NCBI GenBank assembly: GCA_002327905.1
Contig: DCUY01000067.1
Coordinates: 10,764-74,763, forward strand
DNA from: a candidate division WOR-3 bacterium UBA2202
Lineage (GTDB): Bacteria; Hydrothermota; 32-111
Length of the DNA: 64,000 nucleotides
Reading direction: 5' to 3'
A program made the translations under genes and the position numbers. Shown here one piece after another: positions 16,091 to 45,447 of the stretch. Within the stretch, counting starts at the first letter, position 1. Each line of letters opens with the position of its first letter. A model generated the notes under the pieces. The model was not told where the DNA came from and searched no databases. It saw nothing but the letters and a program-made list of their open reading frames with translations.

Positions 16091-16518
16091 ATTACAATCC
16101 TCAAAAGGGCATTTGCGGCAATTCCCGAGATAATGTCATCCATTATGATCCCTGCAGTCCCTTTAATGTTCTCTGATTTTCTTATGAAGAGAGGTTTCGC
16201 AATGTCCATATATCTGAAAAGAATAAACGCAGAGGCGAATATAAAAACCGAATGGGGCAAAAATAAAAGCGAAACAATCATTCCAATAAGCTCGTCCGCC
16301 ACAATTTTAGAATCATCTCCTTTGAAAGAACCCGCATACTCTATCGAAATGGAAGACAGAAGCAGAACATTTGAAAAGATCAGAAACATCTGAATATCGC
16401 CAAACCTCATAAAATAAGCAATGAGGCAGAAAAGGAGGGATACTATGGTTCCGCCGCCCTTAATATTGCCAATATAAAAACATGAAGCGATAATGTGATA
16501 TATTTTTTTAAAAATCAT
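16078..16518 (-). CDS. pgpA: Phosphatidylglycerophosphatase A
   Basis: 146 aa membrane protein. The N-terminal FYIGNIKGGGTIVSLL matches the PgpA family. Confidence 0.75.
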   Translation of the reverse strand: MIFKKIYHIIASCFYIGNIKGGGTIVSLLFCLIAYFMRFGDIQMFLIFSNVLLLSSISIEYAGSFKGDDSKIVADELIGMIVSLLFLPHSVFIFASAFILFRYMDIAKPLFIRKSENIKGTAGIIMDDIISGIAANALLRIVIWIL

Positions 16519-17246
16519 TTATACATCTCTGGAATTCTCTTCAATTCCCTGATGTCCTCTATCGAAAACAGATTTAAGTGGTTGAGAATGATTATTATCT
16601 TTTTTATTTTTCCATCTTTTATTCCTATTCCGGATACAAATGAAAGCAATTTTTCAGGAAGAAACGGCGGAATCTGTTTTATGTCAGTCTCTTTGAAGCG
16701 AGCAATTCCGACAAGATAATCCACATAGATTCCAACTCTGAGATCATCAATCTGAAGAATTATTATTGAACCGTCTTCTTTGCGGTCGTCTTTCATGCCG
16801 AATTTTTTTCTGAAATCAACAAGAGGAATAACTCCGTCCTTCATATTTGTTATTCCGAAAAACAGGTCGCTCTTCACTCCGACATCCAATGGCTTCTTAT
16901 ATTTTATTATCTGCCTCACAAAATCACTGTCAATTGCATATTCTTCATTCTTAAGAAGAAATGTCACAAACTCTTTTACCGAATCAGCATCCTCTTTTTT
17001 TTCTTGAGACTGATTCATGCGCCGAATATCGGCAATTTCAGATTTTACCTGCGACATTTCAATTTTCTTTTCTGCCTTCACCGGCTCCTTATGCTCAAGA
17101 TGCTCTGATTTCTCCTGTTTGGAAGCAATTTCAGGTTTGGACAGTTTCACTAAAGGTCCCTTTTCTTCAGACTTTTTAGGCTTGATCTTCTTGTCCGGTT
17201 TATCGTTCTGAAGAATATCCTGAAGGTCAATTTTCTTTTTCATCAT
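16515..17246 (-). CDS. CheW-like coupling protein with a Lys/Glu-rich N-terminal extension
   Basis: C-terminal CheW domain (EYAIDSDFVRQII...GVIPLVDFRKKFG...IIILQIDDLRVGIYVDYLVGIARF). The first ~90 aa are a K/E-rich low-complexity region. Confidence 0.75.
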   Translation of the reverse strand: MMKKKIDLQDILQNDKPDKKIKPKKSEEKGPLVKLSKPEIASKQEKSEHLEHKEPVKAEKKIEMSQVKSEIADIRRMNQSQEKKEDADSVKEFVTFLLKNEEYAIDSDFVRQIIKYKKPLDVGVKSDLFFGITNMKDGVIPLVDFRKKFGMKDDRKEDGSIIILQIDDLRVGIYVDYLVGIARFKETDIKQIPPFLPEKLLSFVSGIGIKDGKIKKIIIILNHLNLFSIEDIRELKRIPEMYK

Positions 17247-18072
17247 TTTCTCCGGTTAATTCTTTTAGCTTTTCTTCCGCTTTCTGAGCCCATCTGTTGT
17301 ATCTGTTCTTCTTTATAAGGTCATTAAGGGTCTTTATGCCCTTGTTTTCAAGGCCCGATTCAAAGAATGCTATTCCGAGATAATAATACGCCTCCATATG
17401 ATTGGGTCCGAGCTCAATGGTCTTGCGGAAGAATTTTATCGCGTCATCATACATCTCCCTGTCTCTATAAATAAGTCCAAGGTAAAAATTTGCATATATC
17501 AGCGACATTTTATCGTCAGTAGTCTTTAATACTGAAGTAAGATGCTCAATAGCCTCTCCAAATATTCCTTTTTTGAAACACACATATCCCAGATTGTTTT
17601 TTGCTATTGCATTATCAGGGTCAATCTGAAGAACCTTCTGAAATATTGACATCGCATCATCATACCTCTCCTTGTGAAGATATGCCCATCCCAAAAGCCC
17701 GAGAGATTTCACATCATTCGGGGCAAGACTCATTGCTTTTTCAAGTATTTCGACAGCATCATCATACTGCTCGTCAACCATGAAATTCCATCCCTTGTCT
17801 ATATATGTTGTCAAATCAACAGGAGAAATTTTCATTGACTGCACAAATGACTGCAGGCCCTCTTTGTTTATATTCGGATTCTTTATTCTCTTTGCCAGCT
17901 GTTTTATCCTCCCGTCAGCATGTTTTATAAAAGCATTCATTGATAAAATCTGCTTATAGACTTCCATAAGCTCGTTTTTTATATGCTCCTCTCCGTATTT
18001 TCCGGTATCAATTACACTCTCTATTCTGTCGAGATGAGCATCAATTTCCTTTTTTGCATCAGTCCATTTCAT
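17227..18072 (-). CDS. TPR repeat protein
   Basis: Multiple 34-aa repeats of the W-LG-Y / A---F---L---P-N type (LGWAYLHKERYDDAMSIFQKVLQIDPDN and others). Confidence 0.7.
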   Translation of the reverse strand: MKWTDAKKEIDAHLDRIESVIDTGKYGEEHIKNELMEVYKQILSMNAFIKHADGRIKQLAKRIKNPNINKEGLQSFVQSMKISPVDLTTYIDKGWNFMVDEQYDDAVEILEKAMSLAPNDVKSLGLLGWAYLHKERYDDAMSIFQKVLQIDPDNAIAKNNLGYVCFKKGIFGEAIEHLTSVLKTTDDKMSLIYANFYLGLIYRDREMYDDAIKFFRKTIELGPNHMEAYYYLGIAFFESGLENKGIKTLNDLIKKNRYNRWAQKAEEKLKELTGENDEKEN

Positions 18073-19102
18073 CTGTCAGCTCCTCTATCTTTTCAGAGAT
18101 TCTGTCTTTGTCCATTATAAAATCGACACTTCCCGTATCAATTGCGGCTTTCGGCATACCGAAGACTACTGATGAATCTTTTGATTCCGCTATGTTTGTT
18201 CCGCCCATTTTTTTTATTATGAAGACTCCTTCAGAGCCGTCCTTCCCCATTCCTGTCAAAATGACTCCTATAATTCTTTTTCTGAAGTATCTCACTGCGG
18301 AGAGCATCATTATGTCAGCCGCAGGTTTGACGGAATGGTACGGAGGGTCATCCGACAAATGTACAATTCCGCTTTCATCAAAAATCATGTGTTTGCCGCC
18401 CTGAGCGATAATACAGTCTCCGTTTTTCAAGCCGCAGTTTTCGTATGCTTCAAAAACATTCAAACCCGACATGGTGTTCAGTCTCTCGGAAAATGATTTT
18501 GTGAAACCGGCAGGCATGTGCTGGACAACTGCGACAGCAGCGTTCAGCTCCGGCTTTATGCGCGGTATTATCTCCATAAGGGATTTCGGTCCGCCCGTTG
18601 AAGATGCTACAGCGACAAGATTGACTGCATTTGTCTCCTGCTTTGCCTTGCCGCCCACCCTCTCGGCTACTGCAGAAGAAGATTGAAATAGTCTGCTGAT
18701 ATTTGATTTCAAAGCGCATTGCATTTTTTGAAGTATTTCATCCCTCTTCTCCGTGATGTCCAAAGATATTGAACCTGACGGTTTTTCCACTATATCAAAT
18801 GCTCCGAATTCAAGAGCTTTAAGAGCTATCTTGGAGCCTGCTTTTGAATACGCGCTCACTATGATTACAGGTACGGGCTTTATACGTAGAATCTGCTGAA
18901 GACTTATCAGTCCGTTTATCTTCGGCATTTCAATGTCAAGTGTCACAATATCAGGATCAAGAATCCTGAATTTTTCTATCGCCTCCGCTCCGTCTGCCGC
19001 TTCGCCCACTACCATGAATGCCTTGTCTGAATTGATTATGTCCTTCAATATCTGCCGCATCAACAATGAATCATCAACGACAAGAACTCTGTTGATTTTC
19101 AA
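18059..19102 (-). CDS. cheB: Chemotaxis response regulator protein-glutamate methylesterase
   Basis: N-terminal receiver (VLVVDDSLLMRQ...DIVTLDIEMPKINGL) and C-terminal methylesterase (VAVASSTGGPKSL...GMPKAAIDTG). Confidence 0.9.
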   Translation of the reverse strand: MKINRVLVVDDSLLMRQILKDIINSDKAFMVVGEAADGAEAIEKFRILDPDIVTLDIEMPKINGLISLQQILRIKPVPVIIVSAYSKAGSKIALKALEFGAFDIVEKPSGSISLDITEKRDEILQKMQCALKSNISRLFQSSSAVAERVGGKAKQETNAVNLVAVASSTGGPKSLMEIIPRIKPELNAAVAVVQHMPAGFTKSFSERLNTMSGLNVFEAYENCGLKNGDCIIAQGGKHMIFDESGIVHLSDDPPYHSVKPAADIMMLSAVRYFRKRIIGVILTGMGKDGSEGVFIIKKMGGTNIAESKDSSVVFGMPKAAIDTGSVDFIMDKDRISEKIEELTDEMD

Positions 19103-19578
19103 TATTGAATCTCCCCGAGTTTATATGATGTCACTTTAATCTTTCCTGTCTTAATTGTGAATTCGACCGACCTGCTGTAATCGCTCCCCGTGTCCTCAGC
19201 TGTCACAGGTATTCTGTTCTCTCTCAGCATTTTTTTTGCCATTTCAATATTTCTGTATCCTATTGATTCTTCAACATTTTTTATAAAAATGGAGAACATG
19301 TTGGCCCCTCCGACTACTTTTGCCTCCATTCTGTATTTTCTTGCTCCAAGCTGTTCCATCTCCATAATTAGATTGGACAGGCCAGTGTCGCAGTATTTGT
19401 ACGGATTAAAGAAAGCCTTGGAAAATACTTTGCTCGGCAGCATAAAATGTATCATTCCTCCTATTTTTTTTTCTCTGTCAAAGAGAGTTACCGCAACGCA
19501 GGAGCCGAGTCCTATCGTTTTAAGCACATCCTCTTCAAATGCTACATTGGCGTCAGCTATTCTGATGTTAATAATCAA
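19099..19578 (-). CDS. cheD: Chemoreceptor glutamine deamidase CheD
   Basis: 159 aa. The GLGSCVAVTLFD...GGMIHFMLPS signature matches CheD. Confidence 0.85.
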   Translation of the reverse strand: MIINIRIADANVAFEEDVLKTIGLGSCVAVTLFDREKKIGGMIHFMLPSKVFSKAFFNPYKYCDTGLSNLIMEMEQLGARKYRMEAKVVGGANMFSIFIKNVEESIGYRNIEMAKKMLRENRIPVTAEDTGSDYSRSVEFTIKTGKIKVTSYKLGEIQY

Positions 19579-20371
19579 TTTTTCTAAAGACCCTTTCCTT
19601 TCTGTTTATTGTTTCAAACATGTCTTTTACATAGCCCGTAAGAATTTCGACTTTTCCGAGGACAAGATATCCGTTCTGCTTCAATATTTTATGAAAGTTT
19701 GATATAATGCTCTCCTGAAAATCCTTTGAAAAATATATCAGAATGTTTCTGCATATTATCAAATCAAATTTCCCCATTGTAAGAAGGGAGTCGCTCTCCT
19801 TTATATCCATAATTATAAAATCCACATTTCTCTTTATATCTTCATCAAGAATGTAATGCTGTCCGCTCTTCTTAAAGTATCTCGCCACCTCAGAATGCTT
19901 CAGCTCCATAAAAGAGTAATCGCTGTAAATTCCTATTTTTGCCTTTTCAATGGCGTCTGCGTCAACATCTATCCCCACTATTTCATAATCTCCGTCAGAG
20001 TTTCTGAAAAAATTCTTCAGTATCATTGAAAGAGTATACGGCTCTTCTCCTGTGGAGCATCCTGCGCTTAAAATGCGCACCTTCTGATTTTTCCGCACAA
20101 TGTCTTTGAATATTACATCTCCAAGAAAATCAAATGTCTCTCTGTTTCTGAAAAATCTCGTCACATTTATTGTAAGAGTGTCTTTCAGCTTCATCATCTC
20201 AGCTTGATTGTACCGGAGATATTCAAGATACTCTCTGTAGCTCTTCTGGTCAGTATATCTCATTCTGACAGCTATTCTTCTCTTGAACGGCCTCTCTTTG
20301 TATAGGTTTCCGTCTATGCTGATATGCTTCTTTATATAATCAATAAGAAACTGATAATCATTGTCAACCAT
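19568..20371 (-). CDS. cheR: Chemotaxis protein methyltransferase CheR
   Basis: TRFFRNRETFDFL N-terminal helical domain, and the SAM-binding motif VRILSAGCSTGEEPYTLSMIL. Confidence 0.9.
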   Translation of the reverse strand: MVDNDYQFLIDYIKKHISIDGNLYKERPFKRRIAVRMRYTDQKSYREYLEYLRYNQAEMMKLKDTLTINVTRFFRNRETFDFLGDVIFKDIVRKNQKVRILSAGCSTGEEPYTLSMILKNFFRNSDGDYEIVGIDVDADAIEKAKIGIYSDYSFMELKHSEVARYFKKSGQHYILDEDIKRNVDFIIMDIKESDSLLTMGKFDLIICRNILIYFSKDFQESIISNFHKILKQNGYLVLGKVEILTGYVKDMFETINRKERVFRKIDY

Positions 20372-21962
20372 TTCTTACGGTCTCCAGAGTGCGTTTCAAA
20401 ATTTCATTGTCAGGCTGAAGTTCAAGAGCCTTTTCCCAATAAACCAAAGCATCCTGCTTTTTTCCCTTTCTATAGCGGAGATTTCCGATTTTATACAGTA
20501 TGTCAAAATCCGCTTTTCCGATATTGACTATGTCTTCAAGCACTTGTTCCGCCGCGTCAAAATTCTTTTCATTGAAATAATATTCCACTAAAGCTTTGAA
20601 AGGAACAGGGTCGGAATTTGAAGTCTCGACCGCTTTTTTAAACATACTCTCTGCGGACTCAATTTTTCCGCTTATTGTGTATATTTCTCCTAAATTGTAA
20701 TAAACCTGCCATATTGTATTGTCCTGTTTTATAAGTGAAAAGAGAATATTTGTAGCTTCGCTCACCATTCCGTTTTCAAAATATACAAGCGCAAGAAAAA
20801 ATGATGCGTATTTCAGGTTTTGGTCTATTTTTAACGCCATTTTAATTCTCTCTTCTGCCTCTGAGAAGAGATTCATTTTGAATGAGAGTATTCCATAATT
20901 AGCAAGAATCTTGGCATTCTCAGGTTCGATCTTCAAAGCTCTCTCATAAAATTCATCCGCCCTTTCGTAATTATTCAGCCTCTCATAAGTGAGAGCTATA
21001 TTGTTGAAAAGGGCGATATTTCCGATTCCAAGCTTCAAGAGCTCCTCAAAAGATTGAAGAGCCTTCTCATAGTCTTTCAATCTGAAGTAAATAAGCCCTA
21101 TATAGAAATATGCTTTGATATTGGTTTTGTCTATCTGTATTATATGCCTGAATTCCCGCAGAGCCTCTTCATACATTTCAGTCAGAAGAAATGCAAGCCC
21201 TAAATTGTGGTGCTCCTGCACTTTTGTCTGAATGTCTGTGGACATCTCTATCTGCTTCTCTTCTCCTGAATAAATGTATCCCACTTTCAGAAGAGTGTAT
21301 ATGGCCTTTCCCGTTTCATATCTTCCCAAAACTGATTTGTCAAAGATCTCTCTTATTGAGAGCCTGTTATTTACAAGAGAATAAATGTATCTCTCGTCAT
21401 CCTCCTGAAGAGTCTTCTCATCCTTTATGCTCGTCTTTACCAGAATGGTCTTCTCATTCGGAAGTTCTTTCTCAATTATCGACCACTCATCGATTTTTCT
21501 CGCCTCCTCAAGAAGTATATCATCCGCTTCAAGCTCCACAGTGATGGTTTCGGATACAGGCGGAATATCCGGTTCAAAATTGAAGAACCCGTCTTTCCAT
21601 GTCAGAAGAGTGAATATTGAATCTATTATTTGTTTTTTTATTCTGTCCACCAAAATATCAAGAGTTATGTATCCCATCTCTATAAGAAGGTCTCCAAGCC
21701 TTTTCAGCCCCTTCATCTCCTCTTGAGCCTCCAAAGCCTTCTCCAAATTCTCTTTTGAAATATCTCCGTACTTCACAAGCAGATTGCCAAGCCTCTCTTC
21801 CCTGTTTACTATTGAGCAGTAAATAATCTTTCCGTCCCTGAAGAAAATATCACCAAAATTCTTCTTGTCGGAAACACTCAAAACTCCGGTCTTCCTTCCT
21901 AAAGAAAGCAGTTGAATCACATCAGGAAGAGACGCCTCTTTGAGGTTTCCCCGTATGCTCAT
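20364..21962 (-). CDS. DUF4388-like N-terminal domain fused to a TPR-repeat array
   Basis: The N-terminal ~100 aa (GNLKEASLPDVIQLLSLGRKTGVLSV...GDIFFRDGKIIYCS...ERLGNLLVKYG) fit the DUF4388 pattern. The C-terminal half holds at least seven TPR motifs. Overlaps cheR and the upstream ATPase gene. Confidence 0.55.
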   Translation of the reverse strand: MSIRGNLKEASLPDVIQLLSLGRKTGVLSVSDKKNFGDIFFRDGKIIYCSIVNREERLGNLLVKYGDISKENLEKALEAQEEMKGLKRLGDLLIEMGYITLDILVDRIKKQIIDSIFTLLTWKDGFFNFEPDIPPVSETITVELEADDILLEEARKIDEWSIIEKELPNEKTILVKTSIKDEKTLQEDDERYIYSLVNNRLSIREIFDKSVLGRYETGKAIYTLLKVGYIYSGEEKQIEMSTDIQTKVQEHHNLGLAFLLTEMYEEALREFRHIIQIDKTNIKAYFYIGLIYFRLKDYEKALQSFEELLKLGIGNIALFNNIALTYERLNNYERADEFYERALKIEPENAKILANYGILSFKMNLFSEAEERIKMALKIDQNLKYASFFLALVYFENGMVSEATNILFSLIKQDNTIWQVYYNLGEIYTISGKIESAESMFKKAVETSNSDPVPFKALVEYYFNEKNFDAAEQVLEDIVNIGKADFDILYKIGNLRYRKGKKQDALVYWEKALELQPDNEILKRTLETVRNG

Positions 21963-23633
21963 TTACACCTCAAACTCGACATACAATCTGTCATGTTCGT
22001 TAACCCATTCCTTAATAAGCTTGGAAGTGTCATATTCGCTCTTTTTCCTTGAGGAGATTTTTTTTGATTCTGTCTGAGGAAATACTTTGTTGATTGCTTC
22101 AACTGTCGGTGCGCCGCCGGGAGAAAAAGATGCGAGCTCCGCAAATTTTTCATCAACGCTTGAAAGCGGAGTTTCTATGGCATCAAGCATATAATTCATC
22201 AGAAAATCATTTGTCTGAATACCTGCTCTTGCGAACATACTCTTGTAGACATTTTTTTTGATAAAAAGAGAGGTCGGCTGAATATTGTAGGATTGAAATT
22301 TATTAAGGAAATTCAACAGCTCTCTGTCATCAATGCTGAATTTTCTGTACATTGAAATCACTTTAGGCACATTATTCATAATAATATTTTTTAGGACAAG
22401 CTTGTTGGCTTTATTCTCAAAGAGTAAATCAAAATCATCTATCAAAATTATGCTGAGCTCATCCATATATTTCATGACATATGAATTGTTCACTGCTGAA
22501 TCGATATTGGTTTTGTCCAATAGAATGATTCTCTTATCCGAAAATCTGTTGCAGATGCTGTTTAAGAGATGCGTCTTTCCTGTTCCGTTTGTTCCTGTCA
22601 ATATAACTATTTTATCGGCATTTTCACTATTCAGTATTTCTGTTATTTTGTTGTATGCCGACCTGTTCGTCGCATCCGTTATGAAGGATTCATAATTCAT
22701 CGAAAGCTTTGTACTGCTTCTGAAAACTCTGAGGTATTTAATTTTATCTTTTAAAAATTCTATCTTTTCCCGCAGTTCAACCAGTCTGTCAGGGTCAAAA
22801 AGCATATCCTCTATCTCTCTTGATTCCTTCTTAAACTCCTTGACATTAAGAAGCCCGTATTCCTTATGGAGTTCAACAAGATTCTTCACCTTCTCCGTAT
22901 ATTCGGAGAACTCGCTCTTAATCAATGAAATGTCATTCACATTTATTATATTCTTTAGTCTCTCCACATTGAAGCCCTTCATCTCCCAAATATAGAGTTT
23001 TTCAATATACTCGTCTCTTTTTTCCCCCTCTCTCAGATTTTCCTGCACTCCGGCCTCTCTCTTTACTTCTCTTATAAAATCGGCAAAATCCTTGACCGGA
23101 TTCTCTTCCTTCTTTTCCGGGCTGAAGGTGAGATCAAAAAATTTCCCTGCCATCAGAGTGTTTTTTGTCCTTAAATCTATGGTTATATCCTCCAGACTTT
23201 TCTTTGTAGTGACCAGAAGATATGATGTTGAATGAAGATTGTTGATTATTTCGAGGATTATGTCATGAACAACAGTATTCTTCTCCACCTGCTCAAAATT
23301 TTCTATTATCAAAAGATTTGAATAGAGAAGGAATCTCTTATACTTCATCAAAGCATTGAATTTCATCATCTCAACCATCTCTTTAAGATCAATTCTGAAA
23401 ATATAAAAATCAGGAAATGCATTTGATATTGACTCTGCCATTTTGTCGGCAAATATTTCTCCAGACTGGTCATCAGAACGAACTACAATTACTCTTGAAG
23501 TCAATGTGCCTGTGCTTACTGCATAAGAGAGCTCGGATTTCAGAAAAGCATTTTCCGGAAGTTCAGTGTCGCCGCTGTGCTTCTGTCTGGTTCCGAATGT
23601 CTCCTGAAACTCCTTTATATCATTTTCATTCAT
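21963..23633 (-). CDS. Tandem DnaA/Hda-like AAA+ protein: N-terminal degenerate copy plus C-terminal intact ATPase module
   Basis: C-terminal module has Walker A ILTGTNGTGKTHLLNSICN, Walker B SIILIDDFDLLFENK and a sensor-like stretch, closely resembling the DnaA/Hda AAA+ core. N-terminal residues ~40-170 repeat the layout (FLLYSNLLIIENFEQV...YLLVTTKKSLEDI) but lack a P-loop. TGA/ATG junction with mglA. Confidence 0.5.
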   Translation of the reverse strand: MNENDIKEFQETFGTRQKHSGDTELPENAFLKSELSYAVSTGTLTSRVIVVRSDDQSGEIFADKMAESISNAFPDFYIFRIDLKEMVEMMKFNALMKYKRFLLYSNLLIIENFEQVEKNTVVHDIILEIINNLHSTSYLLVTTKKSLEDITIDLRTKNTLMAGKFFDLTFSPEKKEENPVKDFADFIREVKREAGVQENLREGEKRDEYIEKLYIWEMKGFNVERLKNIINVNDISLIKSEFSEYTEKVKNLVELHKEYGLLNVKEFKKESREIEDMLFDPDRLVELREKIEFLKDKIKYLRVFRSSTKLSMNYESFITDATNRSAYNKITEILNSENADKIVILTGTNGTGKTHLLNSICNRFSDKRIILLDKTNIDSAVNNSYVMKYMDELSIILIDDFDLLFENKANKLVLKNIIMNNVPKVISMYRKFSIDDRELLNFLNKFQSYNIQPTSLFIKKNVYKSMFARAGIQTNDFLMNYMLDAIETPLSSVDEKFAELASFSPGGAPTVEAINKVFPQTESKKISSRKKSEYDTSKLIKEWVNEHDRLYVEFEV

Positions 23634-24232
23634 CTTTTATTATCATACTTCCTTGTCAATTGCTTTATCACCGAAAACATCGCGTCTTTCAATGTCTCAA
23701 TCACCCCGGTTCCCTTTGTTGCAATAGCTTCAAAAGCCTTCCAATCGCTCCTTATCTGAAGAGCGCTCTTAATTACATTTGTGTCAACTGCATTCGGCAG
23801 GTCTCTCTTATTATACTGAATCACCAAAGGCATTGTCTCTATGCTGAATCCGTGCTCCTTAAGATTGATGGCAAGATTTTCAAAAGATTCTATGTTATCC
23901 TCCATTCTATCCGCCTGAGAATCCGCTACAAAGACAACTCCGTCAGCTCCCTGAAGAACAAGTTTTCTTGTAGAGTCGTAATATACCTGTCCGGGAACAG
24001 TATAGAGCTGAAATTTCGCATTGAAATTTCCTATTTTCCCCACATCAAATGGAAGAAAATCAAAGAAGAGCGTCCTGTCCATCTCAGTTGCAAGAGATGT
24101 CATTTCCCCTCTCTTTTCAATTGGAATTTTGCTGAAGATATACTGCAGGTTGGTTGTCTTGCCCGACCTTCCCGGTCCGTAGTAAACAACTTTGCAGATA
24201 ATCTCTTTTTTTGCGTAGTTTACCAATGACAT
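23630..24232 (-). CDS. mglA: MglA-family Ras-like small GTPase
   Basis: Near-collinear with Myxococcus MglA: KVVYYGPGRSGKTTNLQYIF (P-loop), TLFFDFLP (switch I), YTVPGQVYYDSTRKLVLQGADGVVFVADSQ (switch II, with intrinsic Arg and Gln), IQYNKRDLPNA (NKxD). Start set at MSLVNYAKKEI (24232) by alignment to MglA N-termini. The ORF-track start at 24268 is also possible. Confidence 0.9.
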   Translation of the reverse strand: MSLVNYAKKEIICKVVYYGPGRSGKTTNLQYIFSKIPIEKRGEMTSLATEMDRTLFFDFLPFDVGKIGNFNAKFQLYTVPGQVYYDSTRKLVLQGADGVVFVADSQADRMEDNIESFENLAINLKEHGFSIETMPLVIQYNKRDLPNAVDTNVIKSALQIRSDWKAFEAIATKGTGVIETLKDAMFSVIKQLTRKYDNKR

Positions 24233-24239
24233 AATTACC

Positions 24240-25343
24240 TCAATCTCTGAATGTGTTATTGAAAGCATCGCCTTCGTTTGACTCTATTCCTCTCAGTTTC
24301 AGCTTGAATTCGTCAACATTAGTTACTGACTGCAATGCGTCGTCATATGATATTATTCCTGACTTATATAAACGTATAATGGATTGATCAAAAGTGTGCA
24401 TCTGGTACTGCTGACCCTCTTCTATGGCTGACGGAATAAGAAGAGTCTTTATCGGGTCAAGAAGATAATCCTTTATTGTAGGGGTGTTAATCATCACTTC
24501 GGTGGCTGGCACCCTGCCCTTTCCGTCAACTCTCGGAAGAAGCCTCAATGAGAGAACTCCCACAAGAGTGGTCGCCAGCAAAACTCTTATATGTTGCTGT
24601 TGATGAGGAGGATAGAATGAAAGTATTCTGTTTATAGTCTCTGAAGCATTCAAAGTGTGCAGTGTTGACATCACAAGATGTCCCGTGTCAGCCGCTTTGA
24701 TTGCGACATCCATTGTATCCATATCTCGAATCTCTCCCATCAGAATAATGTCCGGATCCTGCCTCAGCACATGCTTTAAGGCATTTTCATAAGAGAATGT
24801 GTCATTTCCCACCTCTCTCTGCGAAATAACGGATTTTTTGTCTCTGAAGAGATACTCAATCGGGTCTTCAATCGTAATGATATTTCTGGCTGCATTTTCA
24901 TTTATGTATTCAATCATTGCCGCAAGAGTTGTTGATTTTCCGCTTCCGGTTGTTCCTGTGGTGAGTATCATTCCTCTCGGCCTCATAACGACCTCTTTTA
25001 ACACCGGAGGCAGATTGAGCTCGTCAATTGTCTTTGCGGATATGGGGATTGTGCGCATTGCAATCGCAACACTTCCCCTCTGAAGATAAACATTGACCCT
25101 GAATCTTGAAAGACCGGCGACTCCTATTGCAAAGTCTATTTCTTTTTTGGCAGTGAATTCATCCTGTTGCTCCTTATTCATAATCTTCAATGCAATCTTC
25201 CGCAATTCATCAGGACTCATCGGCTCGTCTTTTACAATGTTCAGCTTCCCGTCAATTCTAAGAATCGGAGGAGTGCCTGCCTTAAGATGCAGATCTGATG
25301 CTCCGTCCTTAACCATTTTTTCAAGCAATGATTTTAATTCCAT
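24240..25343 (-). CDS. pilT: Type IV pilus retraction ATPase PilT
   Basis: 367 aa. N-terminal GASDLHLKAGTPPILRIDGKL, Walker A GTTGSGKSTTL, Asp box and His box (TLHTLNASETINRIL). PilT-type length, with no long N-terminal domain. Confidence 0.9.
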   Translation of the reverse strand: MELKSLLEKMVKDGASDLHLKAGTPPILRIDGKLNIVKDEPMSPDELRKIALKIMNKEQQDEFTAKKEIDFAIGVAGLSRFRVNVYLQRGSVAIAMRTIPISAKTIDELNLPPVLKEVVMRPRGMILTTGTTGSGKSTTLAAMIEYINENAARNIITIEDPIEYLFRDKKSVISQREVGNDTFSYENALKHVLRQDPDIILMGEIRDMDTMDVAIKAADTGHLVMSTLHTLNASETINRILSFYPPHQQQHIRVLLATTLVGVLSLRLLPRVDGKGRVPATEVMINTPTIKDYLLDPIKTLLIPSAIEEGQQYQMHTFDQSIIRLYKSGIISYDDALQSVTNVDEFKLKLRGIESNEGDAFNNTFRD

Positions 25344-29805: not shown

Positions 29806-30195
29806 TCACTTCACTATTTCCATATAAACTTCATTTCTAACTTTTTCTTTGACATTCTTATCTAAAACTGAATCAAGATACATTTCAATAATTTCATCTG
29901 TTTTCGACTTGAGAGTTTCTAATTCTTGAAGAATTGATGCTAAGTAATTAAGATCAACTGGTATTTTTATATCCTTTATTCCAATATCAAGAAATACTCT
30001 TAAATATCTTGCTTCTTCTTCCGAAGAACACTCAACTATACTTTTACCGGAAATCAATTTCCATCCGAATAGATCTTTTTGAACAAATACTTCTCCATTC
30101 TTAGCAGGTAATTCAACTATTTTAAGATTACTAACTGGAAGAATTAATATTTTTTCTTTATAAAATTCACCTATTTTTTTCATTTTAACTCTCAT
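29806..30195 (-). CDS. Hypothetical protein
   Basis: 129 aa ORF with no recognisable motifs. Separated by ~200 bp from both neighbouring genes. Confidence 0.35.
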   Translation of the reverse strand: MRVKMKKIGEFYKEKILILPVSNLKIVELPAKNGEVFVQKDLFGWKLISGKSIVECSSEEEARYLRVFLDIGIKDIKIPVDLNYLASILQELETLKSKTDEIIEMYLDSVLDKNVKEKVRNEVYMEIVK

Positions 30196-35036: not shown

Positions 35037-35848
35037 AACTCTACCTTCTCTATGAATTTTGTTATGAGCTTTTTCAGAGTCAATTCAGCTCTCTTCGCAT
35101 TATTGACGACATATTCAAATGAAACCGGCTCCATGTGGTCAGGAAGCCCCATGTCTGTTATCACAGAGAATCCTGCTACAGGAATGCTCATGTGTTTTGC
35201 GACAAGAGCCTCAGGTACAGTTGACATGCCTACAGCATCCGCTCCCAGAGTTTTAATCATTCTGTATTCGGCCCCTGTCTCAAGACACGGACCCTGTATT
35301 GCGAGATAGACTCCTTTTCTTAAAGGAATACCTACTTCCAAAGCCGCCTGTTCGGCGATTTCCTGAAATTTCTTCGGATATACTTCATATCCGTCAGGGA
35401 ATCTCGGTCCCAATTCATCATAATTTTTCCCTCTCAAAGGATTTCCGGGAAGGAAGTTGATATGGTCGGTAATCAGCATCACCTCTCCGGCTTTGAAGAG
35501 CGGATTTATTCCTCCTGCCGCATTTGAGACTATAAGCAATTTGGCTCCCAATTGAAGCATCACTCTTACAGGAAAAGCTATTGTCTGAAAATCATAGCCC
35601 TCATAGAAATGGAATCTGCCCGCCATGGCTATAACTCTCTTTCCTGCGAGGTCTCCGTATATCAATTCGCCTGCGTGGCTCTCAACTGTTGATATGGGAA
35701 AATTCGGAATATCTTTGTATGAAAGTTTTGCCTTGACATTGATTATCTGGGCAAGCTCCGACATCCCTGTTCCGAGAATAATTGCTATCTCAGGATTTGC
35801 GAATCCTTTGCTCTTCAAGAATTCAGTTGTTTCTTTTATTTTCTCCAT
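35033..35848 (-). CDS. Purine nucleoside phosphorylase (PNP/MTAP family, PunA type)
   Basis: GRFHFYEGY, the PNP family I signature, plus VGMSTVPE. 271 aa. Confidence 0.85.
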   Translation of the reverse strand: MEKIKETTEFLKSKGFANPEIAIILGTGMSELAQIINVKAKLSYKDIPNFPISTVESHAGELIYGDLAGKRVIAMAGRFHFYEGYDFQTIAFPVRVMLQLGAKLLIVSNAAGGINPLFKAGEVMLITDHINFLPGNPLRGKNYDELGPRFPDGYEVYPKKFQEIAEQAALEVGIPLRKGVYLAIQGPCLETGAEYRMIKTLGADAVGMSTVPEALVAKHMSIPVAGFSVITDMGLPDHMEPVSFEYVVNNAKRAELTLKKLITKFIEKVEL

Positions 35849-36401
35849 CTTTTTCCTCTTCTTTTTTTATATGGTTAAACAATGCGCCGAGATTCATTAT
35901 ATTCTCAGGCGGCTCCTTTAAAATCTGGTTTATTTCATTCACTTCTATCTTGTGTTCATTTGTCTCCTGATCAAGCATTTTGATATATGAGTCAATAATT
36001 CCCTTGAATCTGGAAATAAAATTGTTTTTAAGTGTAATCAATGTCTTTATATCATTTCGCAGGTGAATCACTTCATTCTTTGCGGATTGGACAATGTTCT
36101 CAGCTTCAAGCATTGCATTCCTCTTGATGATTTCCGCTTCCTTCACTGAATTTGACTTCAAATCTGAAGTGGACCTCTGCGCTGAAGTCAGTGTATCCTG
36201 CAATGTCCTTTCAAGACTCTTGTACCTCTCCAGTTCATTGTGCAGAGACTCCATCTGGTCCCTGTAGGAGTTGTTCTCTCTAAGAACCTCCTCCATCTGC
36301 TCTGCTATCATTGAGAGAAAGGTCTCAACTTCGTGCTTGTCAAAGCCGTTAAATGACTTTTTGAACTCCTGTTTCCTGATATCAAGAGGAGTTATTTCCA
36401 T
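35823..36401 (-). CDS. DivIVA domain protein
   Basis: N-terminal ITPLDIRKQEFKKSFNGFDKHEVETFL is the DivIVA signature. Coiled coil follows. Confidence 0.75.
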   Translation of the reverse strand: MEITPLDIRKQEFKKSFNGFDKHEVETFLSMIAEQMEEVLRENNSYRDQMESLHNELERYKSLERTLQDTLTSAQRSTSDLKSNSVKEAEIIKRNAMLEAENIVQSAKNEVIHLRNDIKTLITLKNNFISRFKGIIDSYIKMLDQETNEHKIEVNEINQILKEPPENIMNLGALFNHIKKEEEKDGENKRNN

Positions 36402-39019: not shown

Positions 39020-39715
39020 ATGAAAAAACTGATTTATTTAATGCTTTTATTTGCAGTAATCTTCGGATGCTCGCTTCTTCCTTCTGAAGACAGAATTCAG
39101 GGCGTCTACACCTATACGGGAATTTTTCTCTCTCAGAAACTCTTCTCTGACACTGCAAATATACTTGGCGGAGACACGGTTTTGACTGCGGGAATGATCA
39201 CTCTCAACTGGCAGACTCTCAATGCGATAGTGGGTGACAGAATAATAATTGAAAAATCAGTGGGAGATTCGCTTGGCTATGAACCTATAGATTCAGTGCC
39301 TGTAACCCAGACAGGAGCTTTTATTGATTCTATAATGTCGGGAAACACATACTATTACAAAGTATTTCTCAATAACAACGGCAAAAATACTCTTATGGAT
39401 GATTATACAATAGTCATTCCGAAACTGATAATAAATTCGCCTATGATTACTGATACAACCATCTCAGCCGATTCTTTTGACATAAAATTCTCTTCAATTG
39501 AGAATAATACAAAATACTCCATTAAACTTACAAATCTCAACGGAGATTCATTGTGGGCTGTGAAAGATGTGCAGGATACTTTCTATACCTTTACTCCGGG
39601 TCCGTATTTATCAGCAGGAGTCTATTCTCTGACAGTGACAACAATTGTTGTGGATGTTCTTAAAAGCCAGTCAATTGTTACAACTTCAGGCGTGACTCAA
39701 TTCTATGTAAAATAA
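39020..39715 (+). CDS. Lipoprotein of unknown function (beta-rich, possibly Ig/FN3-like repeats)
   Basis: Lipobox IFGCS, 231 aa, rich in T/S/Y/V. Confidence 0.45.
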   Translation: MKKLIYLMLLFAVIFGCSLLPSEDRIQGVYTYTGIFLSQKLFSDTANILGGDTVLTAGMITLNWQTLNAIVGDRIIIEKSVGDSLGYEPIDSVPVTQTGAFIDSIMSGNTYYYKVFLNNNGKNTLMDDYTIVIPKLIINSPMITDTTISADSFDIKFSSIENNTKYSIKLTNLNGDSLWAVKDVQDTFYTFTPGPYLSAGVYSLTVTTIVVDVLKSQSIVTTSGVTQFYVK

Positions 39716-40967: not shown

Positions 40968-41574
40968 ATGATTTTAAGTAATGATTGATATTTAAATTTC
41001 TCAGCATCCATCCTCTGCCTTCTTCTATCAGTTCAAGAATTGAAAGAGACGCAGTATCCACCTGAAGCCTCCAAAAATATGGCTTATTGATATTCAGAAG
41101 CCCTGATATGAGAGGTTTGATTACAGCTCTGTGAGTCACTATCAAAACTCCGTTCTCTTCATCCCTGCATAATTCATTTGCGGCTTCAACGGTTCTTCTT
41201 CTGACTGAATCAAGAGTCTCCATGCCTTTCACATTTAGATTCTCAGGGTCATTGACCCAGATTTTCCACTCATCAGGGAATTTCTCTTTAATATCGGTTT
41301 TGTATCTGTTCTCCCAATCTCCGAGAAAAATATTATTGAATCTCTCATCAATATTTACTCTTATGTTTTTTCTCCTGCTTATTATTTCGGCTGTCTTTGA
41401 TGCTCTTATTAGCGGACTTGAGTAGATTCTGCTTATTTTTATTTTACAAAGAAAATGAGAGGCATCCTCAGCCTGCATCTTTCCCCTTTCAGTCAGCGGG
41501 AAATCAGTTCTTCCCCTGAATTTTCCGTCTTTATTTCCCTCGCTCTCTCCGTGGCGCAACAAATATAAAAGCAT
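40948..41574 (-). CDS. Histidine phosphatase family protein (phosphoglycerate mutase/CobC-like)
   Basis: LLRHGESEGN catalytic RHG motif. 208 aa. Confidence 0.75.
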   Translation of the reverse strand: MLLYLLRHGESEGNKDGKFRGRTDFPLTERGKMQAEDASHFLCKIKISRIYSSPLIRASKTAEIISRRKNIRVNIDERFNNIFLGDWENRYKTDIKEKFPDEWKIWVNDPENLNVKGMETLDSVRRRTVEAANELCRDEENGVLIVTHRAVIKPLISGLLNINKPYFWRLQVDTASLSILELIEEGRGWMLRNLNINHYLKSFEEERF

Positions 41575-43763
41575 CAGCTCTCCTTTTTTTGTTCCATAAA
41601 TGTCTGAAAATTGTACACTGAGGGCTTCACATAAAAACTCCCCAGCACATGCTTTCCGTAGCTCTTTGTGAGGATTCTTTCGTCAAGTATATAAATCTCT
41701 CCTTTGTCGTCATTCTTTCTTATAAGCCTCCCCATTCCCTGCTTGAGCCTTATTATTGCCTGAGGCAGAGTGTACTCTCTGAACGGGTTAATCTGATTCT
41801 CCTCCATCACCCTGCATCTTCTTCTGATTATCGGGTCATCAGGCACGGCAAACGGCATTTTTAAAATAACTATGATTTCCAAAAGGTCTCCGGGAAGGTC
41901 AACTCCCTCCCAAAACATATTGGTTCCGACTAAAATTGAAGCCTTCCTCTGCTTATGCATATGAAGCAGTTTGTCTCCATTCTCCTCCTTCTTCTGAAAC
42001 AAAAATCTTTTGTCATTGAATCTTTTTTTCAAAAAATCAATCTGTGCGTATGATGTCGCCAATATGAACATTCTTTTGTCGCTTGATGATAACACCTGTA
42101 TTATTTGGGATGCCTTCTCCATGAATCCGTCCGAGTTCGGATCATCCATACCATTGAAGCATATCACCTTCATCTGTTCTTCATAATTGAAAGAGGACTC
42201 GTATGAATTTTCAAAGTGCGCGCGTTTTGTCTGATTTATTCCTGTCTGCTTTTTGAACATTTCAAATGAATTTGAAGCAGTCAGAGTGGCGGATGTGAAG
42301 ATGAATGAAATATCTTCCCGCGAGAGCATCGCCTTTAAGAAAGGTTCTCCCGTATCTACTGGAAGTCCGTTTAAAATTATGTTTTTTCTGTTCGGAACAT
42401 ATTCATAGAAAAATGCATACTCTTCATTGTCAGCCTGTGAATTAACTGCAAAAGACTCAAAGAATCTGTTAGTTTTTTCAAATATGTATTTCAGAGTCTG
42501 ATAAATATCAAGCATCCTGAATTTCTCTTCTTTAAGAAGTTTTATTCCCCTGTCTGCATTATCCGATATCGCAAAAAGCTTCCCGCTTATAAGCCTCACT
42601 CTCTCTTCGGCGCCTCTGAATATTCTTGATGAATATTCATTTCTCTCCTTATTCTCCGTCTCTGCAATATCAAGTATAAACCTGTAAAGAATGTCAATTT
42701 CATCCGTAGCATCATTCATGGTTGAAAGAAGATTCTCAAAATAATTCACAGCATCTGTGGAGAGGTTTGACGACCTGATGAATTTCATTTGACCTCTGAA
42801 TGTGTGCGTGAAGTAATTCATTGTTTTTAGAACATACAAAAAATCAAATTTATATGAATAAATATCAGTTATGGCATTCTCCAGATTGTGCGCTTCGTCA
42901 AAGACTATACAGTCATATTCTCCGAGGAATTTATTTCCGAGTTCTGCATCTATAAGAGACAGATAATGATTTGTAAAGACTATCTGACTTGTCAATGCCT
43001 TCTCTTTCACCTTCAAATAATGGCATATGCCGCTAAACGGGCAGGTATTTTCAACACAGTATTCATTGTCACAGGTTATGTCTCCCCTATCAAGGTCATG
43101 ATGATACTTCAATTCGCTCAAGTCCCCTGAATTTGTAAAAAGCAGAAAACCTTCAAGAGCAAGCTTGGTCAAAGGAGAAAAATTGCTTATATTTTCATTG
43201 TACTTCATGAAACAAAAATAATTCCCTATGCCTTTTAACATTGATGCGGAGACTGATATTCCCGTATAATCCGATGCGGTTTCAAGGTCCTTGTCAAACA
43301 GTTGCATCTGCAGGTTCTTCGTATTGGTTGAAATCACAGCTCTCTTTGAATCTCCTAAATTCTTAATGAGAGGTATAAGATACGCAAGTGATTTGCCTGT
43401 TCCGGGAGGAGCCTCCGCAATAAGAATATTCTGACTGCCTATAGCCTCGTTGATATCATCCATCATATTGAGCTGTCCTCTCCTTTTTTCAAGGTCGAAA
43501 GTCAATTTTTTCGGATAAGTTATTTTAAAGGATGAATCTACTTTTTGAAAAAAATGTTTTTTTGAAAATTTCATCTCTTCGGAAATATAATCGGAAAAAG
43601 GCCCCGGAGTATAATTTAGAAGAAATGAATTCAGAAGAGAGTCATTATAATGGGATATTCTATCCTTAAAAGCCTTTTCGGAGAAATTGCCTGTTTTATC
43701 AAACAGAATGGCATTCTTTTCTTCTTCGGAGATTCTGGAAAAGAGAGAAGATTTCTTATCCAA
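41574..43763 (-). CDS. dinG: ATP-dependent DNA helicase, DinG/Rad3 (XPD) family
   Basis: Walker A APPGTGKSLAYL, DEAH box (FDEAHNLE), four-Cys Fe-S cluster insert (CDNEYCVENTCPFSGIC), and C-terminal helicase motifs. Confidence 0.8.
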   Translation of the reverse strand: MDKKSSLFSRISEEEKNAILFDKTGNFSEKAFKDRISHYNDSLLNSFLLNYTPGPFSDYISEEMKFSKKHFFQKVDSSFKITYPKKLTFDLEKRRGQLNMMDDINEAIGSQNILIAEAPPGTGKSLAYLIPLIKNLGDSKRAVISTNTKNLQMQLFDKDLETASDYTGISVSASMLKGIGNYFCFMKYNENISNFSPLTKLALEGFLLFTNSGDLSELKYHHDLDRGDITCDNEYCVENTCPFSGICHYLKVKEKALTSQIVFTNHYLSLIDAELGNKFLGEYDCIVFDEAHNLENAITDIYSYKFDFLYVLKTMNYFTHTFRGQMKFIRSSNLSTDAVNYFENLLSTMNDATDEIDILYRFILDIAETENKERNEYSSRIFRGAEERVRLISGKLFAISDNADRGIKLLKEEKFRMLDIYQTLKYIFEKTNRFFESFAVNSQADNEEYAFFYEYVPNRKNIILNGLPVDTGEPFLKAMLSREDISFIFTSATLTASNSFEMFKKQTGINQTKRAHFENSYESSFNYEEQMKVICFNGMDDPNSDGFMEKASQIIQVLSSSDKRMFILATSYAQIDFLKKRFNDKRFLFQKKEENGDKLLHMHKQRKASILVGTNMFWEGVDLPGDLLEIIVILKMPFAVPDDPIIRRRCRVMEENQINPFREYTLPQAIIRLKQGMGRLIRKNDDKGEIYILDERILTKSYGKHVLGSFYVKPSVYNFQTFMEQKKES

Positions 43764-45447
43764 CTGTTGCTTTCATTACCTCTTCTAAAGTTGTTATTCC
43801 CGCTTTAACTTTTATAAGCCCATCCTCTCTCAGCATCATAACTCCCTCTCGCCTCGCCTGCATTCTGAGTTCTTCCGTAGGAGCCTGCTTCACTATCATC
43901 TCTCTTAAAGTGTGGGTGAGAGGAAGAATCTCAAATATTCCGACTCGTCCCTTGTATCCTGTGTTTCCGCACTGCATGCAGCCCTTTCCAAGCATGAATT
44001 TTGCTCCGCGCATATACTCCGGATTTACTCCGTATCTTATAAGTTCGTCGTCAGAGACATCAACCTGAGTTCCGCAATGTTTGCACACTCTTCTTATAAG
44101 CCTCTGCGCCTCTATAAGAATAATGGCTGAAGCAACTTTATACGCCTCGATTCCCATGTCCTGAAGCCTTGAAATTGTGGCAATAGTGTCATTAGTGTGA
44201 AGAGTCGATAAGACAAGATGCCCTGTCAATGCCGCTTTTATTGCAATGTTTCCTGTTTCAAGGTCTCGTATCTCTCCCACCATGATTATATCCGGATCCT
44301 GCCTGAGAAATGCCTTCAATGCGGTTGAAAATGTATATCCAATGTTCTCCCTCACATTGACCTGATTTATTCCGATAAAATCATATTCTATAGGGTCCTC
44401 TGCAGTGGTTATATTGACATTCGGAGTATTCAATCTCGAAATCACAGAGTAAAGAGTGACTGTCTTTCCGCTTCCCGTGGGCCCTGTTACGAGTATAATT
44501 CCATTCGGCCTTTCAATAGACTCTATAAAATCATTGTATGCTTTTCTGCTAAGCCCTATGTCTTCAAGCTTCAGAAGAGATGACTTTTCGGCGATTCTCA
44601 TGCAAATCTTCTCTCCGTGCGCAGTCGGAAGAGTCGACACTCTTAGGTCAATCGATTTTTCGGCAACCTTCATTCCTATTCTTCCGTCCTGAGGGATCCT
44701 TCTCTCTGATATATTCAGCCCAGCCATTATCTTCAGTCTGGATGTGATTGCGGGACCCATTGTATATTGCGGACTCATCACTTCCTTCAATTCTCCATCA
44801 ACCCTGTATCTCACTCTCAATATTTTTTCAAACGGCTCTATATGTATGTCAGATGCGCCCTGCCTCACTGCCTCAACTATTATTCCGTTCACAAGCTTGA
44901 CAACCGGAGCGGCATCGACATCAATCAGCAACTGCTGAGCATCAGGCATCTTTTCTTCTTCAATAATCTCAATGTCTTCGTCGTTGATTCCCATTTCCAG
45001 CAATACATCAGCCATGGAACCCGCAACACCATAGTATTTTTCGATTGCCTGAGAAATAAGATTCTCGCTTGCCACCAAAGGCACCACATTATATCCTGTT
45101 GCGAATTTAATATCCTCTATAGTATAGACATCGACAGGATTCGCCATTGCAAGAAAGAGATTCTTGCCCTCTCTCCTTATAGGTATAACCTGAAATTTCT
45201 GAGCTATCTGGGGGGATATTGTCTTTAGAGTCATTGGTTCAATCTCAAGGGAATCAAATGAGACTACCCCCACATTGTACTGCTTTCCCAATGTATGGGA
45301 TATCTGTTCGTCAGTGACAAAATTCATCTGCACCAAAATACTGCCAAGCCTTCCGCCATTGTCTTTCTGCTCGGCGAGTGCGTGTTTCAGCTGATCCATA
45401 TTGATGAGTCCTTCATCAATCAGCATGTCTCCAAGTCGTTTCCACAT
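43756..45447 (-). CDS. pilB: Type IV pilus assembly ATPase PilB (GspE family)
   Basis: N-terminal T2SSE_N domain. Walker A GPTGSGKT, Asp and His boxes. Tetracysteine zinc motif CKHCG...CMQCGNTGYKGR. 563 aa. Confidence 0.9.
   Translation of the reverse strand: MWKRLGDMLIDEGLINMDQLKHALAEQKDNGGRLGSILVQMNFVTDEQISHTLGKQYNVGVVSFDSLEIEPMTLKTISPQIAQKFQVIPIRREGKNLFLAMANPVDVYTIEDIKFATGYNVVPLVASENLISQAIEKYYGVAGSMADVLLEMGINDEDIEIIEEEKMPDAQQLLIDVDAAPVVKLVNGIIVEAVRQGASDIHIEPFEKILRVRYRVDGELKEVMSPQYTMGPAITSRLKIMAGLNISERRIPQDGRIGMKVAEKSIDLRVSTLPTAHGEKICMRIAEKSSLLKLEDIGLSRKAYNDFIESIERPNGIILVTGPTGSGKTVTLYSVISRLNTPNVNITTAEDPIEYDFIGINQVNVRENIGYTFSTALKAFLRQDPDIIMVGEIRDLETGNIAIKAALTGHLVLSTLHTNDTIATISRLQDMGIEAYKVASAIILIEAQRLIRRVCKHCGTQVDVSDDELIRYGVNPEYMRGAKFMLGKGCMQCGNTGYKGRVGIFEILPLTHTLREMIVKQAPTEELRMQARREGVMMLREDGLIKVKAGITTLEEVMKATVG

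Follow-up and report, generated by a model that had tools for sequence, protein, structure and literature searches.

A tandem DnaA-clade AAA+ protein encoded among mglA, pilus and chemosensory genes in a candidate division WOR-3 bacterium

AAA+ modules of the DnaA clade are textbook replication and transposition factors. We describe here a 556-residue protein built around two such modules in tandem, the gene for which lies beside mglA, a pilT-type gene and chemosensory genes in a 64-kb stretch of contig DCUY01000067.1 of the candidate division WOR-3 bacterium UBA2202 (this whole stretch is referred to as the window). The closest described relatives are DnaA, through its domain III (PDB 1l8q, 2z4r, 8bv3), and Hda, a protein of about 230 residues made of a single domain, in which a clamp-binding motif lies at the N-terminus and the arginine finger is essential. 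Unlike DnaA, the window protein is without domains I and II and the DNA-binding domain IV, carries two tandem copies with a new helical module between them, has lost the arginine finger, the sensor-I aspartate and the sensor-II arginine as well as the P-loop of one copy, and occurs in a motility and chemosensory context rather than a dnaA-dnaN one; both of the features named for Hda are likewise missing.

Two further systems invite comparison. Type II AAA+ proteins with a degenerate ring, such as NSF, p97/Cdc48 and the FtsHi pseudo-ATPases, are likewise tandem and keep a dead copy as a structural module; the window protein, however, belongs to the initiator/DnaA clade and not to the classic clade, has a helical module of ~130 residues between its copies, and resembles p97, NSF or ClpB in architecture only as judged by Foldseek, a closed hexamer or pore loops not being in evidence. 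MglA/MglB polarity modules have so far, to our knowledge, been understood almost solely from Myxococcus and Bdellovibrio, and we know of no MglA partner that is an AAA+ protein. The partners of MglA in these organisms are the GTPase-activating protein (GAP) MglB, the guanine nucleotide exchange factor (GEF) RomR/RomX, the TPR effector SgmX and the TPR protein Bd2492. The gene described here likewise occurs together with mglA, in many cases with mglB too, and has pilus genes and a gene for a TPR protein close by, the kind of polarity module known from earlier work (PMC7519303, PMC7668184, PMC3983030, PMC4316618). DnaA-clade AAA+ modules and tandem AAA+ proteins with a pseudo-ATPase copy are known, but their functional setting here was unexpected. 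The protein represents a family, so far uncharacterised and spread over several phyla, that arose from DnaA domain III and was recruited to a gene cluster for motility and polarity signalling.

Two DnaA-clade folds around a conserved helical module

The open reading frame (ORF) is a real gene, conserved and under selection: 27 full-length homologues with 40-77% identity were found in a search of 5.8 billion proteins, all of them from candidate division WOR-3, Stahlbacteria or unclassified metagenome-assembled genomes (MAGs). From the N-terminus, the protein consists of a pseudo-AAA+ domain, a helical segment that we call the M module, an AAA+ domain with its lid and a short tail. A first-pass annotation had proposed a tandem DnaA/Hda-clade protein with one degenerate copy and one P-loop copy, and fold, profile ranking against PDB and orthologues with an intact N-terminal copy all bear this out. 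Each globular end of the protein shows a DnaA-clade AAA+ fold. The AlphaFold2 (AF2) model of the whole protein (predicted local distance difference test score 79.5) scored 18.1 against DnaA, 16.0 against Hda, 14.3-13.3 against DnaC/IstB and at most 12.7 against other solved structures, and the N domain taken separately gave 16.5, 15.7, 14.4-13.5 and at most 12.2, respectively, so that in fold the protein falls in the initiator clade (DnaA/Hda/DnaC/IstB), ahead of the other AAA+ clades. No placement of the P-loop domain in IstB, RuvB or KAP was found, since a profile of the C-terminal half ranked DnaA structures first (2.6e-10, 4.9e-9, 1.9e-5), followed by DnaC (2.2e-5) and other AAA+ proteins (4e-3 or weaker).

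Considering curated family models, Pfam Bac_DnaA matches the C copy at 31.9 bits, above its gathering cutoff of 23. The best NCBIfam models for this copy are Hda (1.9e-14, residues 314-503) and DnaA, both far under their equivalog cutoffs: the match to DnaA (TIGR00362) is partial and reaches 36.9 bits (E 2.2e-9) against a cutoff of 343.9, while that to Hda (TIGR03420) reaches 53.8 bits against 194.8, in a protein of 556 residues with two AAA+ folds. Domains I and IV of DnaA are absent, there being no Pfam or NCBIfam match outside the AAA+ region, and no model of either collection fits the protein as a family. A literature search returned no publication on the tandem DnaA-like family, none in which a DnaA-like protein is tied to MglA, to PATAN or to the regulation of pili, and nothing relevant on DnaA paralogues in pilus or chemosensory contexts; the protein is thus not a member of a known characterised family, an outcome that would have counted against the first-pass reading.

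The C copy retains the Walker A and Walker B motifs of DnaA domain III, both of which had been quoted in the first-pass annotation: TGTNGTGKTHLLN at residues 346-358 and IILIDDFD at residues 395-402. In an alignment of 19 sequences these correspond to TG..GTGKTHLLN and, over residues 396-402, hhhD(D/N)xD; G347, G350, G352, K353 and T354 are invariant, as is D399 of Walker B, while position 400 is Asp or Asn, the latter in about one third of the window clade. The adenine-pocket box FxxDxxN (F317, D320, N323) is also invariant. The copy had been called intact, and this holds for Walker A and the Walker B aspartate but overstates the rest, as the arginine finger, the sensor-I aspartate and the sensor-II arginine (box VIII) are gone. 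In a hidden Markov model alignment, the box VII arginines of Thermotoga maritima DnaA (RLVSRF) are opposite E438 and F442; Tyr, Gln or His takes the place of the sensor-I Asp ('SDR'), and an invariant Ser in 'PLS' (S491) that of the sensor-II Arg. The retention of the FxxDxxN box and the P-loop together with the loss of the trans-arginine finger fits nucleotide binding without canonical trans-arginine hydrolysis, and judging from these motifs ATP is probably bound by the C copy but not hydrolysed as it is in DnaA.

The N-terminal ~170 residues form a well-folded DnaA-type AAA+ core which, in the window clade, is without P-loop, Walker B acids, box VII and lid subdomain, so that domain III is recognised here by fold only. 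A direct profile comparison of the N and C copies within the protein is in register but weak (P = 0.004, probability 8%), and the claim of a repeat therefore rests on structure and orthology; a profile of the N domain found no matches among PDB sequences, and sequence alone cannot place this copy. When the N region of the window clade was aligned by hhalign with the N domains of intact relatives, however, a probability of 94.7% was obtained (E 5.8e-8, 127 columns), with SDDQSGE paired with the P-loop, LIIENFEQ with Walker B, LLVTTKK with sensor I and RTKNTLMAG with box VII, which upholds the proposal that the N region repeats the layout of the C copy with its P-loop lost. Its rate of evolution exceeds that of the other parts (mean column identity 48% in this copy versus 65-66% elsewhere). 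Near the N-terminus, a conserved FQExF aligns with the FENF box that opens DnaA domain III, and it was accordingly rejected as a candidate clamp-binding motif of the form FQxxF and regarded as a relic of that box. A regular-expression search of 70 orthologue N-termini for a beta-clamp motif (QL[SD]LF or QLxLxL) returned only one Gemmatimonadota member, with QLQLFL (locus L004).

The best-conserved segment of the protein is neither of these folds but the M module, a stretch of ~100-130 residues between them that is predicted to be all-helical. Its signature is KLY[IV]WEMKGFNV...L, with the family form Y[VI]W[EKQ]MK[GN]F, and reads KLYIWEMKGFNV at residues 212-223 of the window copy. No Pfam or NCBIfam model matches the M module, and its profile gave only chance-level matches against PDB (TRF1, 0.03). 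It is present once in the window protein and in 6-14 tandem copies in giant proteins of 1000-3100 residues. The second constant element is the C-terminal tail, which follows a basic linker modelled with low confidence and has the consensus DTSxLIKEWxNxxDRLYVEFE, invariant in the window clade; the window protein itself terminates in ...DRLYVEFEV. An acidic-aromatic extreme C-terminus is found across the family (ELIEENF/Y, RLMEEF, VWEEY and DLLEMEY in relatives) and persists even in short forms without the C-terminal AAA+ domain.

The wider family was collected by a family-profile search of 1.84 billion cluster representatives. What defines it is the M signature between two DnaA-type AAA+ folds, an arrangement that the window protein shares, and the C-M-C architecture is present in more than 20 relatives. 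In P0036, P0037, P0040, P0042 and P0045 two Pfam Bac_DnaA domains (up to 370 bits, in two stretches, in P0036) flank the M module, and on the NCBIfam DnaA model P0045 and P0036 score 616 and 535 bits. Such relatives, which exceed the equivalog cutoff, can be mis-annotated as the replication initiator in MAGs. As orthologues in sister lineages have an intact, near-canonical DnaA domain III at the N-terminus, the tandem layout is ancestral: a DnaA-type AAA+ with lid, the M module, a second DnaA-type AAA+ with lid, a disordered linker and an acidic/aromatic tail.

Motif states read from an alignment of the 70 orthologues reveal that the ATP sites have decayed reciprocally between lineages. In the window clade the P-loop survives in the C copy only, and the N copy is dead. 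In a large clade of WOR-3 and Stahlbacteria with an adjoining mglB, it is the N copy that is catalytically complete (G.GK[ST], DD, RLxSRLEGG, SIRTIEG), the C copy having 'DN' for Walker B and neither box VII nor sensor II; in a subset of Stahlbacteria the Walker A lysine of the C copy is replaced by Arg. Both copies are canonical in Gemmatimonadota, and in several lineages the C domain is gone altogether, leaving the N copy with the M module and the tail. The M module, the tail and one or more DnaA-type folds are the constants of the family, which suggests that surfaces for scaffolding are no less important than catalysis. Decay of the N copy in one lineage and the C copy in another offers a natural experiment on the evolution of pseudo-ATPases.

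A conserved neighbourhood of MglA, PATAN-TPR, Che and pilus genes

In the window, the co-directional minus-strand genes follow, in order of transcription, as TPR, efp, pilT, mglA, the tandem DnaA-like gene, PATAN-TPR, cheR, cheD, cheB, TPR and cheW, and beyond cheW Pfam recognises pgpA, cinA, a LigT-like gene, recA and recX on the same strand. The stop codon of mglA overlaps the start of the tandem gene (ATGA), and the ATG of the PATAN-TPR gene follows directly on its TAA with zero gap; this is the geometry of translational coupling. Within the window clade the gene order is the same, from the first TPR gene to cheW and, counted from efp, as far as recX, with 41-49% identity between the proteins. 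The gene is thus embedded, as was first suggested, in a GTPase/pilus/Che operon and is co-inherited with it, and this makes a recruited nucleotide switch or scaffold, also suggested then, the most reasonable reading of it, although the assignment is inferential.

For a broader view, 185,579 species-representative genomes were scanned with the M-module signature, which gave 71 confirmed loci from MAGs of WOR-3, Stahlbacteria, TA06, Cloacimonadota, Edwardsbacteria, UBP2 and Gemmatimonadota. ORFs called in 10 kb of flanking sequence were compared with the proteins encoded in the window and with an MglB profile, and only loci with enough flank were counted. In 61 of 64 loci one of the two genes that follow encodes a PATAN domain, and in one more such a gene lies upstream instead; cheR, cheD and cheB lie downstream in 56, 53 and 54 of 60 loci, respectively. 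Among 61 loci with sufficient upstream flank, mglA is encoded within five genes upstream in 42, a Roadblock/LC7 mglB in 32 (directly upstream of the orthologue), either of the two in at least 56, both in 18 (in the order mglA-mglB-gene) and pilT in 25. The MglB of sister lineages is a separate gene of 135 residues that matches PF03259 at up to 29.4 bits and is named MglB in source annotations too. It had been asked whether orthologues always co-occur with mglA; they frequently do, but not always, and the tightest partner of the family is the downstream PATAN-TPR gene. From these counts we consider the gene to be a fixed member of a PATAN/TPR-Che module, usually together with MglA and/or MglB and often with PilT.

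A proposed adaptor role and its alternatives

We propose, with a probability of roughly 55%, that this tandem AAA+ protein derived from DnaA domain III is a fixed part of an MglA/MglB-PATAN-TPR-Che-type IV pilus cluster for polarity and motility, where it acts as a nucleotide-binding adaptor or scaffold. The window protein would bind ATP but would be neither a hydrolysing oligomer in the style of DnaA nor a motor. In a nucleotide-dependent manner it would join MglA, and in other lineages MglB as well, to the PATAN-TPR protein, and chemosensory input through CheR, CheD, CheB and CheW would thereby reach the motors of the pilus, PilT at this locus and PilB at a distance of 20 kb. Partners would be contacted through the M module and the pseudo-ATPase, and by analogy with EEVD-type tails the acidic-aromatic tail on its flexible linker may dock in a partner, most plausibly the TPR domain of the neighbouring protein. 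Two DnaA-clade modules in a motility, polarity and chemosensory operon across phyla would constitute a clear exaptation of the initiator ATPase, and MglA/MglB polarity modules would gain an unrecognised core component.

Several observations weigh against this proposal. The functional assignment is guilt by association, and all the organisms concerned are uncultured. About 30% of loci have no mglA beside the gene, and in Gemmatimonadota it sits behind cheA-cheW-cheC-TPR-PATAN with no mglA nearby. The inter-domain arrangement in the AF2 model is uncertain (predicted template modelling score 0.46). The N copy of most other lineages is catalytically complete, with Walker A and B, the box VII arginine and sensor II, and the family may hence be an active ATPase of which the window clade is a derived exception.

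This last point leads to the main rival, in which the protein is an active AAA+ machine, that is, an ATP-driven helical oligomer or filament resembling DnaA, or a remodeller, which assembles or disassembles polar pilus or chemosensory complexes and hydrolyses ATP in the N copy (in other lineages) or with an arginine supplied by a partner. Modules of DnaA, DnaC and IstB form ATP-dependent open spirals, and besides the complete N copies and the doubly canonical proteins of Gemmatimonadota, type II AAA+ proteins, p97/Cdc48 and Yta7 among them, can be aligned by Foldseek with the complete model over ~600 columns, with E values down to 6.5e-11. The TM-scores of these alignments are only about 0.2, however, no pore-loop-type features were identified, and in the window clade both copies are without arginine finger or sensor II and the N copy without a P-loop. 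An active machine is plausible for lineages with intact sites and less so for the window protein, and on the whole we regard it as unlikely.

A bolder form of the proposal, which we consider improbable, would have the DnaA ATPase module duplicated and exapted, in WOR-3, Stahlbacteria, Cloacimonadota and Gemmatimonadota, to serve as a polar landmark or in a cytoskeleton-like protein. Its ATP-dependent open oligomers, with one live copy and one dead or differently dead copy, would form a platform at which MglA/MglB, a PATAN-TPR protein sensing cyclic di-GMP (c-di-GMP) and the Che pathway set the polarity of type IV pili. As its least-diverged members are near-canonical copies of DnaA domain III, such a protein may even co-assemble with DnaA itself, and this, if true, would tie replication initiation to cell polarity.

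We give little credence to the suggestion, made in the first-pass annotation, that the protein stands in for a missing MglB by providing MglA with GAP or GEF activity. A six-frame search found no Roadblock/LC7 gene in the 64-kb window, nor is there one within 10 kb in any of the 15 window-clade loci; an MglB profile search put none, among the matches listed (120 of 147), on contigs equal in length to those of the window clade, a weak negative given that the search was word-limited. The MglA of the window keeps its catalytic Arg and Gln and should therefore still cycle. On the other hand, the presence of a bona fide mglB directly beside the gene in more than half of the loci, and of mglA and mglB together in the 18 mentioned above, argues that the protein is not a general substitute for MglB. 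The 556-residue protein has no match to Robl_LC7 (PF03259), and its AAA+ fold is unrelated to the Roadblock/longin folds of GAPs or GEFs. Moreover, a clade with the arrangement 'PilT-BC-ThiE-MglA' is also without an adjoining mglB, yet its N copy is intact, which indicates that decay of the N copy does not track the loss of MglB.

Very little credence is given to a role as a tether or substrate of adaptation enzymes, in which the aromatic-acidic C-terminal peptide would recruit CheR or CheB like the NWETF pentapeptide of chemoreceptors. Genes cheR-cheD-cheB lie downstream in about 90% of loci, and in the proteins of L024, L027 and L036 a long flexible linker leads to a terminal xWEEY or xWEEL, endings that resemble the receptor pentapeptide xWxxF. 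Most tails, including RLYVEFEV of the window and the common ELIEENF/Y, are nevertheless without Trp at position -3, no methylation helices are present, and genes for TPR proteins lie nearer and accompany the gene more regularly. Hardly any credence remains for a replication regulator, Hda-like or titrating DnaA, that is in the operon by chance or couples initiation to polarity through hetero-oligomers with DnaA: DnaA and Hda are the closest relatives in sequence and structure, relatives pass the NCBIfam DnaA cutoff and the one Gemmatimonadota homologue opens with the clamp-binding-like QLQLFL, but the window protein falls far below the DnaA and Hda cutoffs given above, has no DnaA domain I or IV and no arginine finger, which Hda needs for the regulatory inactivation of DnaA, the family has no shared clamp-binding motif, and its synteny is with motility and chemosensory genes, dnaN or dnaA never having been seen at the loci examined.

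Features of the window and related observations

Table 1. Coordinates of the tandem DnaA-like gene, its parts and other features, numbered from the first nucleotide of the window
Feature	Position	Strand	Remarks
Tandem DnaA-like gene	21963..23633	-	whole gene, 556 residues; ATG-start ORF
N-terminal pseudo-ATPase	23124..23633	-	residues 1-170; DnaA-type AAA+ alpha/beta core
Relic of N-copy P-loop	23451..23483	-	residues 51-61, VRSDDQSGEIF; opposite YxGxGLGKTHL of orthologues
Relic of N-copy Walker B	23292..23315	-	residues 107-114, LLIIENFE; opposite hhhhDDxx of orthologues
M module	22704..23087	-	residues 183-310, all-helical; from alignments and repeat mapping
C-terminal DnaA-clade AAA+ core and lid	22083..22703	-	residues 311-517
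Walker A of C copy	22572..22598	-	residues 346-354, TGTNGTGKT
Walker B of C copy	22434..22451	-	residues 395-400, IILIDD
C-terminal tail	21966..22031	-	residues 535-556, DTSKLIKEWVNEHDRLYVEFEV
pilT-type retraction ATPase	24240..25343	-	upstream of mglA
mglA	23630..24232	-	~200 residues from the probable MSLVNY start; stop overlaps start of tandem gene
mglA, ORF as called mechanically	23630-24268	-	212 residues
PATAN (DUF4388)-TPR protein	20364..21962	-
cheR	19568-20371	-
cheD	19099-19578	-
cheB	18059-19102	-
TPR protein	17227-18072	-
cheW	16515-17246	-
PilB-type extension ATPase	43756-45447	-	with MshEN domain; ~20 kb from tandem gene
XPD/DinG-like helicase	41574-43763	-
DivIVA homologue	35823-36401	-
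ORF without Pfam match	29806-30195	-	129 residues
ORF without Pfam match	39020-39715	+	231 residues

The start of mglA is taken as the Met of MSLVNY since homologues have 197-200 residues. Two forms of MglA are seen across the loci. Where no mglB adjoins, the window included, the P-loop reads YYGPGR[SA]GKTT, with an extra Arg, and the switch-I Arg is kept (TExDRTLFFD); in 14 loci with mglB between mglA and the tandem gene it reads YYGTGLCGKTT and the switch-I Arg is replaced by Gln (TELDQTLFFD). In the PATAN-TPR protein, residues 57-111, which form the helical insertion of PATAN/DUF4388, match NCBIfam NF053729 ('c-di-GMP-binding motif, MshE-related') at 45.2 bits with a cutoff of 38, and the protein may on this basis be a c-di-GMP receptor. 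The genes for PilB, the XPD/DinG-like helicase and DivIVA lie 12-22 kb from the tandem gene. At ~10-12 kb of the window there is a simultaneous switch in GC skew, AT skew and gene orientation (from + to -), and a second one at ~46 kb.

Several relatives depart from the common layout. P0169, of 1876 residues, combines an MshEN domain, the c-di-GMP-binding N-terminal domain of PilB/MshE, with two DnaA-type AAA+ domains and is another example of DnaA-like modules linked to pili and c-di-GMP signalling and not to replication. At L073 and L075, ORFs of 607 and 609 residues have, after the N copy and the M module, an ATPase of ABC-transporter type (LGPNGAGKS ... LSGGERRR) in place of the second DnaA-type domain, and PATAN and Che neighbours are missing there. 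Two near-canonical copies of DnaA domain III are found in each of P0045/L004 and P0036/L007, from Gemmatimonadota and relatives, and some members of the tandem family are labelled 'chromosomal replication initiation ATPase DnaA' in their source annotation. The Che clusters of relatives also encode an AAA_22-type P-loop protein of ~270 residues between a TPR or cheA gene and cheW (L006, 10813-11619; L007, 2035-2853). The label 'Acetofilamentum sp.' on one locus, which maps to Bacteroidaceae, was set aside as an issue of MAG naming and does not indicate presence in cultured Bacteroidota.

Proteins with M-module repeats include P0031, P0033/P0034, P0038/P0044/P0048, P0076 and P0145. One protein of 1281 residues has 11 copies and no Pfam match, in some of the giants a near-canonical DnaA domain III and zinc ribbons come after eight M modules, and DUF835 proteins of Thermoplasmata are also built with M-module repeats.

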